64,000 nucleotides of DNA from Escherichia coli (lineage in GTDB: Bacteria > Pseudomonadota > Gammaproteobacteria > Enterobacterales > Enterobacteriaceae). The stretch is taken from NCBI RefSeq assembly GCF_041248615.1, contig NZ_CP158426.1. One strand, 5' to 3'. The notes under the pieces are model-generated. The model was not told where the DNA came from and searched no databases. It saw only the letters and a program-made list of their open reading frames with translations. This document shows positions 3,582-30,050 of the stretch, in pieces (within the stretch, counting starts at the first letter, position 1; the number at the start of each line of letters is the position of its first letter). A program made the translations under genes and the position numbers.

Positions 3582-3610
3582 AAACAGGAGCCAGATGGCT
3601 CCTGTTTTTC
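3582..3610. terminator. intrinsic terminator after alaC, plausibly bidirectional (also downstream of ypdK)
   Basis: Stem caggagcc/ggctcctg with 4-nt loop followed by TTTTT, 20 bp after the alaC stop. Confidence 0.75.
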
Positions 3611-5325: not shown

Positions 5326-5568
5326 ATGATTTATTTATGGATGTTTCTCGCCCTGTGTATTGTCTGCGTAAGCGGATACATCGGTCAGGTACTGAACGTG
5401 GTATCGGCGGTCTCTTCTTTCTTCGGCATGGTGATCCTCGCTGCACTCATTTATTACTTCACCATGTGGTTAACTGGCGGTAATGAACTGGTGACGGGGA
5501 TATTTATGTTTCTTGCCCCGGCTTGTGGCTTGATGATTCGCTTTATGGTGGGATATGGCAGGCGGTAG
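5326..5568 (+). CDS. yfdY: 80-aa small membrane protein YfdY
   Basis: 80-aa ORF with two predicted TM helices; GGAGG Shine-Dalgarno (5310-5314) upstream; position between lpxP and ypdI as in K-12. Confidence 0.8.
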   Translation: MIYLWMFLALCIVCVSGYIGQVLNVVSAVSSFFGMVILAALIYYFTMWLTGGNELVTGIFMFLAPACGLMIRFMVGYGRR

Positions 5569-5644
5569 TGGGTCAGGATGGCTCATTTGGGCAGGTGTTC
5601 ACATCAGCATCAGACATGATTGTTCACCTGCCGTGTGACAGACG

Positions 5645-5877
5645 CTATCGCACAGGATGGATAAGATAATTCGCCTTTGTCGGAAAAGGGGGCGGAATTT
5701 CTTCTGTGAGGTTTAATGGTGGCGCATCTTCTCTCATTTTTAACAAAATCGCCTGTGATGGCTGAAATTTTGTAGAGTGAGTTGTCGTCATCGCTGACGT
5801 TTTTTCCGTCTCTTTATAGCTCGTCTCACTTCCACCACCAGAAATGGAAAATGCAAAAACATTGCATGCCATAATAG
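5645..5877 (-). pseudogene. ypdI: ypdI lipoprotein gene remnant, 5' end and promoter removed at the IS1 boundary
   Basis: Minus-strand ORF encodes ...MACNVFAFSISGGGSE... with the candidate lipobox Cys at residue 3 of the remaining frame, so a signal peptide is missing; frame runs directly into the IS1 left end at 5878. Confidence 0.6.
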
Positions 5878-5932
5878 GGTGATGCTGCCAACTTACTGAT
5901 TTAGTGTATGATGGTGTTTTTGAGGTGCTCCA

Positions 5933-6208
5933 GTGGCTTCTGTTTCTATCAGCTGTCCCTCCTGTTCAGCTACTGACGGGGTGGTGCGTAACGGCAAAAG
6001 CACCGCCGGACATCAGCGCTATCTCTGCTCTCACTGCCGTAAAACATGGCAACTGCAGTTCACTTACACCGCTTCTCAACCCGGTACGCACCAGAAAATC
6101 ATTGATATGGCCATGAATGGCGTTGGATGCCGGGCAACCGCCCGCATTATGGGCGTTGGCCTCAACACGATTTTCCGCCATTTAAAAAACTCAGGCCGCA
6201 GTCGGTAA
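5933..6208 (+). CDS. insA: IS1 InsA (91 aa, transposition repressor / N-terminal part of the transposase)
   Basis: [43 protein letters not shown] with zinc-finger cysteines. Confidence 0.97.
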
Positions 6209-6630
6209 CCTCGCGCATACAGCCGGGCAGTGACGTCATCGTCTGCGCGGAAATGGACGAACAGTGGGGATACGTCGGGGCTAAATCGCGCCAGCGCTGG
6301 CTGTTTTACGCGTATGACAGGCTCCGGAAGACGGTTGTTGCGCACGTATTCGGTGAACGCACTATGGCGACGCTGGGGCGTCTTATGAGCCTGCTGTCAC
6401 CCTTTGACGTGGTGATATGGATGACGGATGGCTGGCCGCTGTATGAATCCCGCCTGAAGGGAAAGCTGCACGTAATCAGCAAGCGATATACGCAGCGAAT
6501 TGAGCGGCATAACCTGAATCTGAGGCAGCACCTGGCACGGCTGGGACGGAAGTCGCTGTCGTTCTCAAAATCGGTGGAGCTGCATGACAAAGTCATCGGG
6601 CATTATCTGAACATAAAACACTATCAATAA
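6127..6630 (+). CDS. insB: IS1 InsB frame (transposase C-terminal part; InsAB' is made by -1 frameshift)
   Basis: 167-aa ORF in the -1 frame overlapping the insA 3' end; slippery AAAAAAC at 6184-6190. Confidence 0.95.
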
Positions 6631-6645
6631 GTTGGAGTCATTACC

Positions 6646-7222
6646 TAATGCATTAAGTGCTGTGCGCGATGTATTGCGCGAGAACCAGGATATTTATTTA
6701 GTTAATGAAGGTGCAAATACCCTGGATAATGCACGAAATATTATTGATATGTATAAACCACGTCGCCGTCTGGATTGTGGTACCTGGGGTGTCATGGGCA
6801 TCGGTATGGGCTATGCCATCGGTGCTAGCGTGACCTCTGGTTCTCCGGTTGTCGCCATTGAAGGTGATAGTGCTTTTGGTTTCAGTGGGATGGAGATTGA
6901 AACGATTTGTCGATATAACCTGCCGGTGACGATCGTTATTTTTAATAATGGCGGCATTTACAGAGGAGACGGTGTTGATCTCAGTGGCGCTGGTGCACCA
7001 TCACCAACGGATCTGCTGCACCATGCAAGGTATGACAAATTAATGGATGCGTTTCGTGGCGTTGGCTATAACGTCACTACGACAGATGAACTTCGTCATG
7101 CTTTAACCACCGGTATTCAGTCGCGCAAACCGACCATTATTAATGTGGTCATCGACCCTGCAGCAGGAACTGAAAGTGGCCATATTACCAAACTTAACCC
7201 AAAACAAGTCGCTGGTAATTAA
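6646..7222 (+). pseudogene. oxc: oxalyl-CoA decarboxylase, 3' fragment only (C-terminal ~190 of ~564 aa)
   Basis: Frame right after the IS1 right end encodes [58 protein letters not shown]...GDSAFGFSG, a thiamine-diphosphate-binding C-terminal domain; no N-terminal or middle domain present. Confidence 0.85.
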
Positions 7223-7290
7223 ATACTGACATCGTCTCCTCTTGCCAACTCATTATCGATGGTGAGGGGACCCTTATCGGAAATACTATT

Positions 7291-8235
7291 ATGCTAACAT
7301 TTTTTATTGGCGATTTATTGCCTATTATCGTAATCATGCTGTTGGGTTATTTTAGCGGCAGACGAGAAACTTTTTCAGAAGATCAAGCCCGGGCATTTAA
7401 TAAACTGGTATTAAACTACGCTCTTCCTGCGGCCCTATTTGTTTCTATTACCCGGGCAAACAGGGAAATGATTTTTGCGGACACTCGCCTGACCCTTGTA
7501 TCACTTGTGGTTATTGTCGGATGTTTCTTTTTCTCCTGGTTTGGTTGCTACAAATTTTTTAAACGTACTCATGCAGAAGCAGCAGTATGTGCATTAATTG
7601 CAGGTTCACCTACCATCGGATTCCTGGGATTTGCAGTTCTCGATCCTATTTATGGTGATTCCGTATCAACAGGTTTAGTTGTAGCAATTATTTCTATTAT
7701 TGTTAACGCAATTACTATTCCTATTGGTCTGTATTTGCTGAATCCTTCCTCAGGAGCAGATGGTAAGAAGAATAGTAATCTGAGCGCATTAATTTCTGCG
7801 GCAAAGGAGCCAGTAGTATGGGCACCTGTTCTGGCAACGATCCTGGTGTTGGTTGGGGTAAAAATTCCGGCAGCATGGGACCCAACCTTTAATCTGATTG
7901 CGAAGGCTAACTCAGGGGTAGCGGTATTCGCTGCGGGGTTGACTCTGGCTGCACATAAATTCGAGTTCAGTGCTGAAATTGCTTATAACACCTTCCTGAA
8001 GCTGATTCTGATGCCACTGGCGCTGCTTCTCGTGGGTATGGCATGTCATTTGAACAGCGAACATTTGCAGATGATGGTACTGGCAGGCGCCTTACCGCCG
8101 GCATTCTCCGGAATCATTATTGCCAGCCGGTTTAATGTCTACACCCGCACTGGTACAGCATCATTGGCTGTGAGCGTACTGGGCTTTGTCGTCACGGCTC
8201 CTTTGTGGATTTATGTCAGTCGACTGGTTTCATAA
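7291..8235 (+). CDS. yfdV: AEC-family membrane transporter YfdV (314 aa)
   Basis: 314-aa polytopic membrane ORF downstream of the oxc fragment. Confidence 0.9.
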
Positions 8236-8263
8236 TTAATCATGTTATTGATTTTACATAAAT

Positions 8264-8294
8264 GCCGAAGTGTCTTTTCACCTTCGGCTTTTTT
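8264..8294 (+). terminator. intrinsic terminator between yfdV and yfdE
   Basis: Stem gccgaag(tg)/(ca)ccttcggc followed by TTTTTT. Confidence 0.65.
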
Positions 8295-8308
8295 CAAGGC
8301 ATAAGCAA

Positions 8309-9454
8309 ATGACAAATAATGAATGCAAAGGGCCGTTTGAAGGCTTATTAGTTATCGATATGACACATGTCCTTAATGGACCTTTCGGAACTCAACTTCT
8401 TTGTAATATGGGCGCAAGGGTAATTAAAGTTGAGCCGCCGGGTCATGGTGATGATACCCGCACATTTGGTCCCTATGTGGATGGGCAGTCACTCTATTAC
8501 AGTTTTATTAATCATGGCAAAGAGAGTGTGGTTCTTGATTTAAAGAATGCTCACGATAAAAGTATATTTATAAATATGCTTAAACAAGCTGATGTATTAG
8601 CTGAGAATTTTCGCCCAGGTACAATGGAAAAACTGGGGTTTTCATGGGAAAGGTTACAAGAAATCAACCCGCGCCTCATCTATGCTTCATCGTCGGGTTT
8701 CGGGCATACCGGTCCGTTAAAAGATGCTCCTGCCTACGATACCATTATTCAGGCAATGAGCGGGATAATGATGGAAACAGGGTACCCTGATGCTCCTCCA
8801 GTGCGTGTTGGTACCTCTCTTGCGGATCTATGCGGCGGTGTCTATTTATTCAGCGGAATAGTGAGTGCACTTTATGGTCGCGAAAAGAGCCAGAGAGGGG
8901 CGCATGTCGATATAGCGATGTTTGATGCCACGCTGAGTTTTCTGGAGCATGGTCTGATGGCATATATTGCGACAGGGAAGTCACCACAACGCCTGGGAAA
9001 TCGCCATCCCTACATGGCACCTTTTGATGTTTTTGATACTCAGGATAAGCCGATTACGATTTGTTGTGGTAATGACAAGCTTTTTTCTGCGTTATGCCAG
9101 GCACTGGAGCTTACAGAACTGGTTGATGATCCCCGATTTATCAGCAATATTTTACGCGTACAAAACCAGGCTATTCTTAAACAATATATTGAGCGGACGT
9201 TAAAAACACAGGCAGCTGAAGTTTGGTTAGCCAGAATACATGAAGTTGGTGTACCCGTAGCGCCGTTATTAAGTGTGGCTGAGGCCATTAATTTGCCACA
9301 AACTCAGGCGAGAAATATGTTGATTGAAGCCGGGGGAATAATGATGCCGGGTAATCCGATAAAAATCAGCGGCTGCGCGGACCCGCATGTTATGCCGGGA
9401 GCGGCAACGCTCGACCAGCATGGGGAACAAATTCGCCAGGAATTCTCATCGTAA
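8309..9454 (+). CDS. yfdE: family III CoA-transferase (acetyl-CoA:oxalate CoA-transferase), 381 aa
   Basis: ORF 8270-9454; product begins MTNNECKGPFEGLLVIDMTHVLNGPFGTQLL at the internal ATG 8309, CaiB/BaiF-type fold. Confidence 0.88.
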   Translation: MTNNECKGPFEGLLVIDMTHVLNGPFGTQLLCNMGARVIKVEPPGHGDDTRTFGPYVDGQSLYYSFINHGKESVVLDLKNAHDKSIFINMLKQADVLAENFRPGTMEKLGFSWERLQEINPRLIYASSSGFGHTGPLKDAPAYDTIIQAMSGIMMETGYPDAPPVRVGTSLADLCGGVYLFSGIVSALYGREKSQRGAHVDIAMFDATLSFLEHGLMAYIATGKSPQRLGNRHPYMAPFDVFDTQDKPITICCGNDKLFSALCQALELTELVDDPRFISNILRVQNQAILKQYIERTLKTQAAEVWLARIHEVGVPVAPLLSVAEAINLPQTQARNMLIEAGGIMMPGNPIKISGCADPHVMPGAATLDQHGEQIRQEFSS

Positions 9455-9475: not shown

Positions 9476-9502
9476 GCTCCCACATTTGAACATTGTGGGA
9501 GC
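9476..9502. terminator. stem-loop between convergent yfdE and evgS, likely bidirectional terminator
   Basis: gctcccaca / tgtgggagc inverted repeat with 9-nt loop, between the two stop codons. Confidence 0.5.
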
Positions 9503-9508
9503 CGCTAT

Positions 9509-12500
9509 TTAGTCATTTTGTTGACAGAAAACAGCAATCTCCTGGTCCAGCTCTGCAATGTGTTCTTTAACAGAGTTCAGCAGCTGAAGAATTTCAGGCT
9601 TACTGTCATCTGAAACAGGTGTTATTTCTAACTGATGGCTAATATTAATCAACTTTTGCAAATTCAGGATGTTAGCCGCACCGTGGATGCGATGAATACA
9701 CTGATGGAAAGTTCTGTTGTCGCCAGCTTCTAGTGCATGAAACGCAGCGGGTAGATCTTTATGCGTTTCATGCTGGAAAGTCATGAGAATCTCCTGCATC
9801 AGTTGTAGATCGTTCGCCGTATTATTTTTCAGGGCCTCGATATCAAGGTGGCGATACTGAGGTGCAATAGGCGCAACCTGGTGTAACTGACTTAAATGTG
9901 TTTTCATTACATCCAGGGTCAACGGTTTGAACAAACATAAGTTCATGCCGTAATTTAACCCTTTTTCACGTTCGTTAGCCTGTGCGTTGGCTGTAAGCCC
10001 CCAGATGGGTAAGGAAGAATTTTGCTCACGGAGTTTGCGAGTCAACTCAAAACCATCCATATTCGGCATATTAACGTCAGTAATAAGCAGATCATAATGT
10101 TGCATACTGACTTTGTGTAGCGCTTGCACACCATCAGTTGCTTCATCAACATCATATCCTAATAGGTTTAGCTGGCGTTTGAGTAATAGCCTGTTGGTCG
10201 GATGATCATCCGCGATTAATATGCTCAACTTTTCAGGGAGTGTCATGGGTTGTTCTGCTTTTGCCTCGACAGTCGCCACTTGTTGGGTAATTTCTACCGG
10301 GATTGTGATCGTAAATGTCGTTCCTATGCCTGGATGACTTTCTAATGACAAATCGCCCTGCATGTTTTTAATTAATTCTTTGCAGATCATTAAGCCTAAA
10401 CCAGAACCTGTTTGCTGACGACCTGCACTTGTTTGGCTATAGCGTTTAAACAGTTGTTGTTGTTCTTCCTGTGATAATCCACTTCCAGAATCCATAATCG
10501 TCATTTTGATTACAGCGTGGTTGTCATCAATGTTAACCAGGGAGGTCGTAATTTTTACTGCCCCCTCGGTGGTAAATTTGAGAGCATTGCTCAGTAAATT
10601 AGATAAGACCTGCTTAAACGCCTGAGGGTCGATCTTAACCAGGTAATGTTCAGGAAACGTACTGCTGCAACTTAATGCGATCGATTTGCTTGCAGCAATC
10701 GCACCGAAAGAGTGACAAGTGTTCTGGACTAAAGTAGGGATATCGACCCATTGTGGTTGAAGTTGATAGTTACCCGACTCAATTTTGTCGACATCAAGGA
10801 TTTCACCAATTAAGCCGAGGAGTGATTGTCCGGTGGCGTAGGCAAGTGAAATCGCCTCCACCCGTTGCTCCTTGCTAAGACCAGAACCCGACAGAAGTTC
10901 CAGGAAGCCCATAATGGAGCTTATTGGTGTTCTTATTTCGTGACTCATTGTTGCCAGAAACTGGCTTTTTGCGACAGTTGCATTGATCGCTTTATTTCTC
11001 TCTACTTCGAGTGCATGAATTAAATCACGCGTCTCGGTAATATCTTGCCAACCACAAATATAAACAGCATGATCGCTGGCTGGCAGATTGCATAATGTAT
11101 GCCAGTGATTAATGCATCTTTTCTCTATGCCATTATCAATTTCAAATACCTGTGTGTATATTGTTCGATTTTCTTTCGTTTCTGCTGTGACTTCATGCGC
11201 ATTAGAAAAAACATCTTTAAAGGGTGAGTCACTGTTTTCTAATGGTAACATTGCATTTTTGTAGTAATCCGCAGTGAAATAATGTTCAAAAGCACTATTA
11301 TGACTAATGACATTACCTTGCCAGTTTACAACATAAGTTGGATTCGGTAAGGAATCCGAGAGTGCTTTTCGGAATGATATTTGGTTTTCTAAATCACCCT
11401 GAATGACTTTACGACGACGAACTGAGCGTAACAGGTAGAATCCCCATAAAAGGCTACTGCCAACTAATAAAACGGATAATGTCGTGACAATATAAAATTG
11501 CTCGCTATAGAGGTCCCATGTGTCAATGGTCACATTGGGCATTTTAATCCATTTTTCCGTCAGGCGCAGAACTTCGCTTGGGGGAATTGCATTCAGAGCT
11601 TTATTAATAATATCCTTAAGTTCCGGTTCTCCGCGAGGAAAAGCGAACGAAAGCGATGCATTCTGAACGCCGGGAATAAGAAAATGATAAAGTTCATTAG
11701 GATAGTAATGGTCGATCATGTAACGTGAATTTAGCTGTGTCGCGACCAGAGCATCAAGTTCACCTTCCTTGACCTTGTGAAATGCAGCGCTGGCGTTATC
11801 GACTTTTATCCACTCTACCTCCGGATACATCTCTTTTAATTGCGAATGCAGCTCATAATAATATGGAATGGCAACTTTCATTCCTTTTTTTAATGTTTGT
11901 TCACTGTCAGGCGCTTTTTGCATGACAAAAACGTAAGGCGTTGTTATGAAGGCTTCAGCAAATAAAACATTATTTTCTCTATCTTCACTATAAATAGCAC
12001 CGGGTAATATATCCCATCCGCCGGGATTCAGCTGTGTTCCAGCATGGATATTGTGTGAAACGGTGATCGGAGAAAAATTTAAACCTGTTTGCAAGGTAAT
12101 AATATTAAGAATATCCCCCATAACGCCCCGAACCGAGCCATTTTCATCCGTCATAGAATAGGGAGGGGAGTAAGGATTTTCCAGCACCTTTAAATCGGGA
12201 TGCTGCTTAATCCACTGTTTTTCATGTTCAGTGAGTTCTAATGGTTTGTTCAGAAAGGCCAGGTTTCCTGTATCAAGCCAATTTTGTGATACTTCATAGC
12301 GAACTTCGTTTGTCAAAGCATCAACAAATCGATTGAGTACTTCATTAAGAACGACAGATTCTTTTCTGGTCAAGAAAAAATTATATTGACGCGGTGAGTT
12401 ATAATATTTCACTACATTTAAGGAGTGAGTGAAATAGCGGGAAATCATACTGCTGGTAATAATGTTACTACCAATAAAGTAATCATTCTGTCCGGCTGAG

Positions 12501-13102
12501 ACGGATGCTAATGCCTGATATAAATTTGTAAAAGAGATAATTGTTGCTTTTGGAAATGATTGATGAATTACCTCGTCTGGAGGGTAATTTGCTACCCGAG
12601 CAATATTTACTGGTTTTGATGAGGTAAGCGGTCTCATTGAATCGTGAAGGGTGGTGACGAGCGCCGGAAAGGTAATTATCAGCGGTTTGGTTGCAGCAAT
12701 GTCATCATTAAGAGGCGGCGAAGCAACTAAATGTGATAACACTATATCGACTTCCCCTTCTGTAAGCGCGTCCATTGCTTTTTGATGATCTGCGTATTCC
12801 CGGAGTGTTAATTTGATATTTAACGCTCTTTTTAAAAGATTTAAATAATCAGCATTAATACCACGAACCCGTTGCTGCGAATCGGTATGCAACAAAGTAG
12901 CCGTTTGGGACTTGTGTACTGCAATCACAAGATTTTTTTTGCTCGCTAACCAACGTAATTCCTTGTTGCTCAGACGTAGTGGATCAAGCGTGACACGGTT
13001 GTTACTACTGATGCCACGATATTCGATGTAATCTTCGTCTGCGAAACTTATGGTCGACCAAAGACCACAACAGAGAAGAATAATATAGGGTAAAAACTTC
13101 AT
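9509..13102 (-). CDS. evgS: hybrid sensor histidine kinase EvgS (1197 aa)
   Basis: 1197-aa ORF: two periplasmic solute-binding-like domains, TM segment, PAS, HisKA/HATPase (SHEIRTP), receiver and HPt domains. Confidence 0.95.
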   Translation of the reverse strand: MKFLPYIILLCCGLWSTISFADEDYIEYRGISSNNRVTLDPLRLSNKELRWLASKKNLVIAVHKSQTATLLHTDSQQRVRGINADYLNLLKRALNIKLTLREYADHQKAMDALTEGEVDIVLSHLVASPPLNDDIAATKPLIITFPALVTTLHDSMRPLTSSKPVNIARVANYPPDEVIHQSFPKATIISFTNLYQALASVSAGQNDYFIGSNIITSSMISRYFTHSLNVVKYYNSPRQYNFFLTRKESVVLNEVLNRFVDALTNEVRYEVSQNWLDTGNLAFLNKPLELTEHEKQWIKQHPDLKVLENPYSPPYSMTDENGSVRGVMGDILNIITLQTGLNFSPITVSHNIHAGTQLNPGGWDILPGAIYSEDRENNVLFAEAFITTPYVFVMQKAPDSEQTLKKGMKVAIPYYYELHSQLKEMYPEVEWIKVDNASAAFHKVKEGELDALVATQLNSRYMIDHYYPNELYHFLIPGVQNASLSFAFPRGEPELKDIINKALNAIPPSEVLRLTEKWIKMPNVTIDTWDLYSEQFYIVTTLSVLLVGSSLLWGFYLLRSVRRRKVIQGDLENQISFRKALSDSLPNPTYVVNWQGNVISHNSAFEHYFTADYYKNAMLPLENSDSPFKDVFSNAHEVTAETKENRTIYTQVFEIDNGIEKRCINHWHTLCNLPASDHAVYICGWQDITETRDLIHALEVERNKAINATVAKSQFLATMSHEIRTPISSIMGFLELLSGSGLSKEQRVEAISLAYATGQSLLGLIGEILDVDKIESGNYQLQPQWVDIPTLVQNTCHSFGAIAASKSIALSCSSTFPEHYLVKIDPQAFKQVLSNLLSNALKFTTEGAVKITTSLVNIDDNHAVIKMTIMDSGSGLSQEEQQQLFKRYSQTSAGRQQTGSGLGLMICKELIKNMQGDLSLESHPGIGTTFTITIPVEITQQVATVEAKAEQPMTLPEKLSILIADDHPTNRLLLKRQLNLLGYDVDEATDGVQALHKVSMQHYDLLITDVNMPNMDGFELTRKLREQNSSLPIWGLTANAQANEREKGLNYGMNLCLFKPLTLDVMKTHLSQLHQVAPIAPQYRHLDIEALKNNTANDLQLMQEILMTFQHETHKDLPAAFHALEAGDNRTFHQCIHRIHGAANILNLQKLINISHQLEITPVSDDSKPEILQLLNSVKEHIAELDQEIAVFCQQND

Positions 13103-29998: not shown

Positions 29999-30016
29999 TT
30001 CCTCTCGGGTACATAC

Positions 30017-30050
30017 GCCCCTGTCAGTTGTTGGCAGGGGCGTTTTATTT
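30017..30050 (+). terminator. intrinsic terminator after yfcZ
   Basis: GCCCCTG-tcagttgttgg-CAGGGGC followed by GTTTTATTTT. Confidence 0.75.

Follow-up and report, generated by a model that had tools for sequence, protein, structure and literature searches.

A probable partial intrinsic terminator between the yfdV and yfdE genes of Escherichia coli

The window analysed here is a stretch of 64,000 nucleotides of Escherichia coli DNA (RefSeq assembly GCF_041248615.1, contig NZ_CP158426.1), and positions given below are those of the window unless K-12 is named. Its yfdV gene (7291–8235, + strand; taken from the list of open reading frames) encodes a 314 amino acid transporter of the AEC family that matches Pfam PF03547 (Mem_trans, E = 2e-80), and yfdE (8309–9454, + strand) encodes a 381 amino acid acetyl-CoA:oxalate CoA-transferase, a function described in PMC3720670, and matches Pfam PF02515 (CoA_transf_3). 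The RefSeq annotation of genomes identical at this locus also names the two genes yfdV and yfdE, in agreement with the identities proposed in a preliminary description of this DNA. The ATG at 8309 is the start of yfdE in the K-12 annotation; in the list of open reading frames the same frame runs upstream as far as a GTG at 8270. The next gene, evgS (9509–13102), lies on the minus strand and is convergent with yfdE. The yfdV/yfdE intercistronic spacer (8236–8308, + strand) is 73 nt long and identical to positions 2489241–2489169 (minus strand) of K-12 MG1655, and any K-12 position at the locus is 2497477 minus the window position.

The spacer is made up, in order, of TTAATCATGTTATTGATTTTACATAAAT, GCCGAAGTG, TCTTTT, CA(C)CTTCGGC, TTTTTT and CAAGGCATAAGCAA, after which comes the yfdE ATG. 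RNAfold predicts a hairpin that begins 28 nt past the yfdV stop codon (TAA, 8233–8235), with the 5' arm GCCGAAGTG at 8264–8272, a 6 nt loop, TCTTTT, at 8273–8278 and the 3' arm CACCTTCGGC (CA-C-CTTCGGC) at 8279–8288, all on the + strand. The stem has nine base pairs, six of them G-C with three G-C pairs at the base, and one bulge, C8281. The T-tract TTTTTT (8289–8294, + strand), which gives six U residues in the RNA, abuts C8288 directly. A short A-tract, AAAT (8260–8263, + strand), lies just 5' of the stem and is complementary to the first residues of the U-tract, and a local hairpin search found this extended pairing of AAA with TTT around the stem. The likely Shine-Dalgarno sequence of yfdE, AAGG (8297–8300, + strand), is 8 nt before the ATG and outside the hairpin pairing, and AGGCA at this ribosome-binding region is retained in all three of the Escherichia-type alleles described below. 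On the minus strand of K-12 the hairpin corresponds to 2489213–2489189 and the T-tract, whose residues are the predicted release sites, to 2489188–2489183; RefSeq annotates no feature under the hairpin. The preliminary description had reported a GC-rich hairpin and six T residues in a 73 bp gap, and its coordinates, gap length and T count are all correct; with six G-C pairs in nine, "GC-rich" is a fair description.

The hairpin is considerably more stable than expected by chance. The segment 8260–8296 has a predicted folding energy of -12.4 kcal/mol (RNAfold), the mean of its shuffled versions is -3.3 +/- 2.1 (z = -4.3), and none of 200 shuffles folded as well; the entire 73 nt spacer folds at -15.4 (z = -2.8). 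When 53 to 289 nt of upstream RNA were included, the six basal pairs kept a pairing probability of 0.92–1.0 in every context, and no competing antiterminator fold was predicted in any of them. A regulated attenuator or riboswitch was considered and rejected, as there is no alternative fold, the RNA upstream is yfdV coding region, and there is no Rfam match.

A simple terminator scan skipped the hairpin at 8264–8288 because its bulge leaves an uninterrupted stem of 7 bp and a loop of 11 nt. A custom scan of both strands of the 64 kb window looked for hairpins of at most 30 nt and at most -11 kcal/mol that are followed directly by at least six T residues. It found two matches, the yfdV/yfdE hairpin and a site after lpxP (4019–3992, - strand), and 40 dinucleotide shuffles of the window gave 0.35 +/- 0.57 sites. 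The stem energy of the yfdV/yfdE hairpin is at the weak end of the range of the window's clean terminators (-13 to -21), and its T-tract is among the best. Hairpins as such are common here, and 10 of the 14 co-oriented spacers in the window contain one of -11 kcal/mol or lower. Other clean canonical terminators noted with the custom scan lie at 30016–30042, 3585–3604 and 59806–59831 (all + strand). We also note a perfectly symmetrical bidirectional terminator at 26221–26252, an A6-stem-T6 structure that reads on both strands and has convergent ORFs on either side.

A hairpin directly abutting six U residues is a sufficient intrinsic termination signal, and every sequence feature of an intrinsic terminator is present between yfdV and yfdE; the preliminary description had called the element canonical. 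Like the canonical Rho-independent terminators of E. coli, it has a stem of about 9 bp closed by G-C pairs, a short loop, an adjacent U run and a short A-tract before the stem, it lies just 3' of a stop codon, and its alleles differ by compensatory substitutions (see below). It differs from them in that it is situated between two genes of one regulon and not at the end of a unit, that its stem is bulged and of moderate stability (about -11 to -12 kcal/mol), and that its release sites are so far predicted ones.

The position of the element leaves yfdE little room for a promoter of its own. The T-tract ends just 14 nt before the yfdE ATG, which makes a promoter 3' of the hairpin physically impossible. 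A sigma-70 scan of the spacer gave no credible match (the only match, 8291–8320, overlaps the start codon), and inspection of the spacer hexamers by hand found none that has the key A2 and T6 of the -10 box at a usable distance. Genomic SELEX with RpoD identified sites in the oxc/yfdV and yfdX/frc spacers and none in the yfdV/yfdE spacer (PMC3946193). With no room for a promoter, no sigma-70 match and no SELEX site, yfdE must, as far as these data predict, be expressed by read-through and be reachable only in that way; the separate yfdE promoter suggested in the preliminary description thus finds no place in the spacer. Upstream, the oxc/yfdV spacer (7223–7290) contains a hairpin at 7234–7271 (-15 to -19 kcal/mol) that has no T-tract, and CTGACA (7226–7231) and CATTAT (7251–7256), 19 bp apart, form a listed constitutive RpoD promoter for yfdV (Shimada et al. 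2014, PMC3946193). We note that the -10 hexamer CATTAT of this promoter sits in the loop of the oxc/yfdV hairpin.

The same observations bear on the idea that the conserved sequence is a site at the DNA level, bound by a protein such as CysB or acting as an element of a yfdE promoter. A CysB ChIP-exo peak, CysB-49, is located at K-12 position 2489195, which is window position 8282 in the 3' arm of the stem (PMC6892915 supplement, Sastry et al. 2019), and two transcriptome papers report yfdE as changed without frc, oxc or yfdV. With an intensity of 9, CysB-49 is the weakest peak noted in that table, against 158–227 for genuine CysB sites, and yfdE is given only under the EvgA iModulon (PMC6892915), the sources consulted showing no sign of its membership in the CysB iModulon; the peak on the hairpin is probably noise or a result of AT-rich stickiness. 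As for a promoter element, there is no room 3' of the hairpin and neither a sigma-70 match upstream of it in the spacer nor an RpoD SELEX site in the spacer (PMC3946193), and a transcript initiated further upstream would in any case run into the terminator. A binding site or promoter element is accordingly a highly improbable explanation of the sequence. The possibility that the CysB-49 coordinate refers to NC_000913.2, in which case it would fall in oxc, was rejected, as the cysK and cysP positions show that the numbering is that of NC_000913.3.

The yfdV/yfdE locus is present in single copy in 5404 of 5426 complete E. coli genomes. A 45 nt core containing the hairpin and T-tract (8256–8300) is identical in 5283 of 5405 E. 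coli records (97.7%), and the surrounding 146 nt have at least 99% identity in only 1418 records. Both the 45 nt and the 146 nt queries match a median of one place per genome, which rules out a repeat of the REP/BIME type. The element resembles REP/BIME-type and other stabilising hairpins in that it forms a stable stem-loop in the spacer that follows a cistron and that relatives have analogous hairpins lacking a U-tract; it is unlike them in being single-copy, in having no REP consensus and in its perfect adjacent U6, which REP elements lack.

Representative genomes were scanned with YfdE and homologues of YfdV were looked up, which yielded 13 loci with a junction between yfdV and a CoA-transferase gene. 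The E. coli stem recurs in two divergent alleles. That of a divergent Escherichia (L011) has GCCGAAG, a 12 nt loop and CTTCGGC followed by T7, so that relative to E. coli the loop and upper stem are altered and the T-tract is kept. That of Yersinia vastinensis (L003) has ACCGAAGTA, the loop CATATTT and TACTTCGGT, followed by an A and T8; here the basal G-C pair and one upper G-C pair are replaced by A-U pairs through changes on both sides of the stem, and the bulge is absent. Across these three Escherichia-type alleles the T-tract is thus T6, T7 and A plus T8, and the loop and the upstream 3' untranslated region drift while the stem and T-tract stay. Three alleles are a small sample, and in it the retention of stem and T-tract amid a drifting loop appears as the pattern expected of a terminator. 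The YfdV and YfdE proteins of the Y. vastinensis locus (strain IP38594, NZ_CACVAF010000001.1) are 93% and 89% identical to those of E. coli, respectively; this is closer than expected between Yersinia and Escherichia and suggests horizontal transfer of the locus.

The divergence of the alleles also argues against a small RNA. The roughly 59 nt yfdV 3' untranslated region (8236–8294) could in principle be released as an Hfq-binding small RNA, with the hairpin and U-tail as its terminator, since it consists of an AU-rich stretch and then a terminator hairpin with U6. A search of Rfam at a permissive threshold gave no family match; the best were rseX and Qrr (E = 5–7), and both of these weak matches end at 8295–8297. 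Their scores are 24 and 17 bits, respectively, against a gathering score of 50, the part that would have to serve as the "seed" (8236–8263) is the least conserved between alleles, with 5 differences in 28 nt in the divergent Escherichia, and no mention of such an RNA was found in the literature. We give a small RNA very little credence.

In other genera unrelated hairpins of -15 to -23 kcal/mol occupy the same junction and have no T-tract. They were found in Klebsiella sp. BIGb0407, Klebsiella sp. RIT-PI-d, two Erwinia loci and Winslowiella, and also in three contigs of the Logan metagenome collection (L041, L045 and L046). At the Moellerella junction a canonical hairpin is followed by TTTTGTTT. 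The oxc/yfdV spacer of the relatives has a hairpin without a T-tract in all cases. From these comparisons the ancestral role of the junction hairpin need not have been termination. Two Providencia loci are arranged differently, and in P. alcalifaciens (L005) and P. rustigianii (L006) yfdV and the yfdE homologue are separated by an extra class III CoA-transferase gene; in P. rustigianii a long AT-rich hairpin lies directly 3' of yfdV.

These relatives bring up the alternative that the E. coli hairpin is mainly an element of RNA stability or processing, a barrier to 3'-to-5' exonucleases or a boundary of differential decay, that protects the frc-oxc-yfdV message and causes little termination, its T-tract being incidental. 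A stable hairpin at the junction in every relative examined agrees with this, as do the fact that most of them lack a U-tract (L041, L042, L004, L043, L045, L044/L014 and L046) and the fact that all of these have an oxc/yfdV hairpin without a T-tract. The presence of hairpins in all relatives had at first been taken as strong evidence of a shared function and was then downgraded; little weight is placed on it because stable hairpins are common, the base rate in the window being the 10 of 14 co-oriented spacers given above. Both divergent alleles with this stem, moreover, keep the T-tract and even extend it, to T7 and T8, and some termination is to be expected in any case from a hairpin followed by U6. 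A role mainly in message stability is rather unlikely on this balance.

The operon to which these genes belong is disrupted in the strain from which the window comes. A complete IS1 of 768 bp (5878–6645, + strand; flanks 5337–5877 and 6646–7222), containing insA (5933–6208) and insB (6127–6630), was identified from the Pfam matches of InsA and InsB and from its ends, and it adjoins the 3' remnant of oxc; the locus was compared with K-12, L001 and strain NRZ14408. NRZ14408 is otherwise identical and has this IS1 simply inserted in oxc; relative to it the window lacks 3,671 bp, which comprise the initial 43 nt of ypdI, yfdX and frc in full and the 5' part of oxc. The 9-mers that flank the IS1 differ, and the missing DNA looks like the product of an IS1-mediated adjacent deletion. 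With this stretch lost, both EvgA-dependent promoters are gone. The deletion takes away the oxalate-decarboxylation enzymes and breaks the operon context in this strain, where read-out from IS1 and the weak site between oxc and yfdV are presumably the only sources of yfdV and yfdE transcription. It has left the sequence of the terminator unchanged. The preliminary description had spoken of what is usually treated as one operon; this is in accord with the literature, in which yfdE is co-expressed with its neighbours (PMC3720670), but it missed that IS1 has decapitated the operon in this genome.

Such disruptions might be taken to mean that the hairpin is a relic, the former end terminator of a frc-oxc-yfdV unit that persists by mutational inertia after yfdE arrived downstream and has negligible function. 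Disruption is tolerated in some lineages, both in the window, through the IS1 deletion, and in strain ETEC1701, through an IS200C after the T6, and the different Providencia gene order with its extra CoA-transferase gene between yfdV and yfdE also speaks for such a relic. The same is true of the hairpin that ends the region, GCTCCCACA/TGTGGGAGC between yfdE and evgS (9476–9502; 9 bp, -16.7 on the + and -17.2 on the - strand), whose T tails are poor in both directions, much poorer than that of the internal hairpin, and which looks a weaker terminator than the yfdV/yfdE one. A relic is nonetheless distinctly unlikely: 97.7% of E. coli records share an identical core between variable flanks, compensatory changes keep the stem in Y. 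vastinensis, and such a sequence would still physically terminate. In ETEC1701 (NZ_CP122938.1; L050, 2596–3305) the IS200C is inserted exactly between the T6 and CAAGG and puts about 0.7 kb between yfdV and yfdE. In another genome (L040, GCA_045584115.1) oxc is shortened, yfdE is split into ORFs of 136 and 228 amino acids and the evgS-like gene is fragmented, so that the locus looks like one in decay; the hairpin is unchanged there.

The available expression data fit a terminator that is leaky. The yfdXWUVE genes have been described as an operon activated by EvgA, yfdE being co-expressed with the others (PMC3720670), and the EvgA iModulon of PRECISE contains frc, oxc, yfdV, yfdX and yfdE (PMC6892915 supplement). 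When MG1655 at pH 5.8 was compared with pH 7.6, yfdX, frc, yfdV and oxc were among the 20 genes most induced by ribosome footprints, with log2 values (footprint/RNA) of 4.89/5.23 for yfdX, 4.78/4.01 for frc, 4.40/4.58 for yfdV and 4.28/3.75 for oxc (PMC10746267, Table 1). The yfdE gene is not in this top 20, whose 20th gene has a value of 3.33 (PMC10746267, Table 1), and its induction is therefore at least about two-fold below that of yfdV. This lower induction fits a leaky terminator and could alternatively reflect a higher basal level of yfdE mRNA or its faster decay. The differential expression suggested in the preliminary description is borne out to the extent that yfdE falls outside the acid top 20 that holds yfdX, frc, yfdV and oxc, and is limited by the co-regulation of all five genes in the same EvgA iModulon. 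Its word "strong" overstated the case, as the stem energy is at the weak end for the window's terminators and yfdE stays in the EvgA iModulon.

Published Term-seq data come from other conditions. The Term-seq tables (Adams 2021; cultures in LB at OD 0.4 and 2.0 and in M63) contain no 3' end at or close to the spacer, and EvgA was presumably inactive in those cultures. Judging by its EvgA dependence the operon should be essentially silent in LB and M63, and we regard the Term-seq blank as uninformative because EvgA is not expected to be active in those media. The genes of this operon are not mentioned in the SMRT-Cappable-seq tables, and a literature search for yfdE or yfdV together with a terminator gave nothing useful. 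A Rho-dependent (bicyclomycin-sensitive) region has been mapped at K-12 position 2488340 (+ strand), about window position 9137, antisense within yfdE (Adams et al.); this suggests that read-through from evgS is stopped by Rho.

Taken together, we think it probable that the element following yfdV acts as an intrinsic terminator, constitutive and only partly effective; both its action in vivo and its partial character we infer from the sequence and the expression data. Termination must be partial since yfdE is still in the EvgA iModulon and co-expressed with the operon. Transcription would begin at the yfdX and frc promoters, which EvgA activates, with a possible further start at the weak sigma-70 site between oxc and yfdV. 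RNA polymerase would proceed through yfdV, and the nascent RNA would then fold into the 8264–8288 hairpin. At 28 nt past the stop codon the hairpin is presumed to be clear of the terminating ribosome; as it has no competing fold either, it would fold constitutively. A fraction of the complexes that reach the U6 tract would be released at about 8289–8294. The remaining complexes would read through, yfdE would be translated from the AAGG and ATG at 8297 and 8309, and the read-through transcripts would probably stop close to the hairpin between yfdE and evgS. The net effect would be a yfdE gene that is under EvgA control but less strongly expressed than yfdX, frc, oxc and yfdV. Such a level fits the accessory "priming" role proposed for YfdE (PMC3720670).

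Work on E. coli by end-enriched and by full-length RNA sequencing has described partial terminators within operons that set the ratios of expression of their genes. The yfdV/yfdE element is like them in being an apparently leaky terminator in a short intercistronic spacer whose downstream gene is co-regulated and seemingly less induced; it is unlike them in that the step in mRNA level is drawn from a top-20 table and iModulon membership only. A broader scheme is also conceivable, in which hairpins in the oxc/yfdV and yfdV/CoA-transferase spacers bracket yfdV across the Enterobacterales at the same positions and with unrelated sequences, and would uncouple the dosage of YfdV and YfdE from that of Frc and Oxc; E. 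coli would have made the downstream one a leaky terminator and other genera would use it for processing or stability. We consider this scheme speculative and quite unlikely to hold.

Many E. coli operons have leaky terminators inside them, and the yfdV/yfdE terminator would be an ordinary example of a well-known kind that raises no new question. If it works as proposed, the textbook yfdXWUVE operon is a graded unit that would yield less of the accessory YfdE than of the transporter and the core oxalate-decarboxylation enzymes. This would be a small refinement for annotation of the RegulonDB and EcoCyc type, for models of EvgA regulon expression and for engineering of the oxalate pathway.
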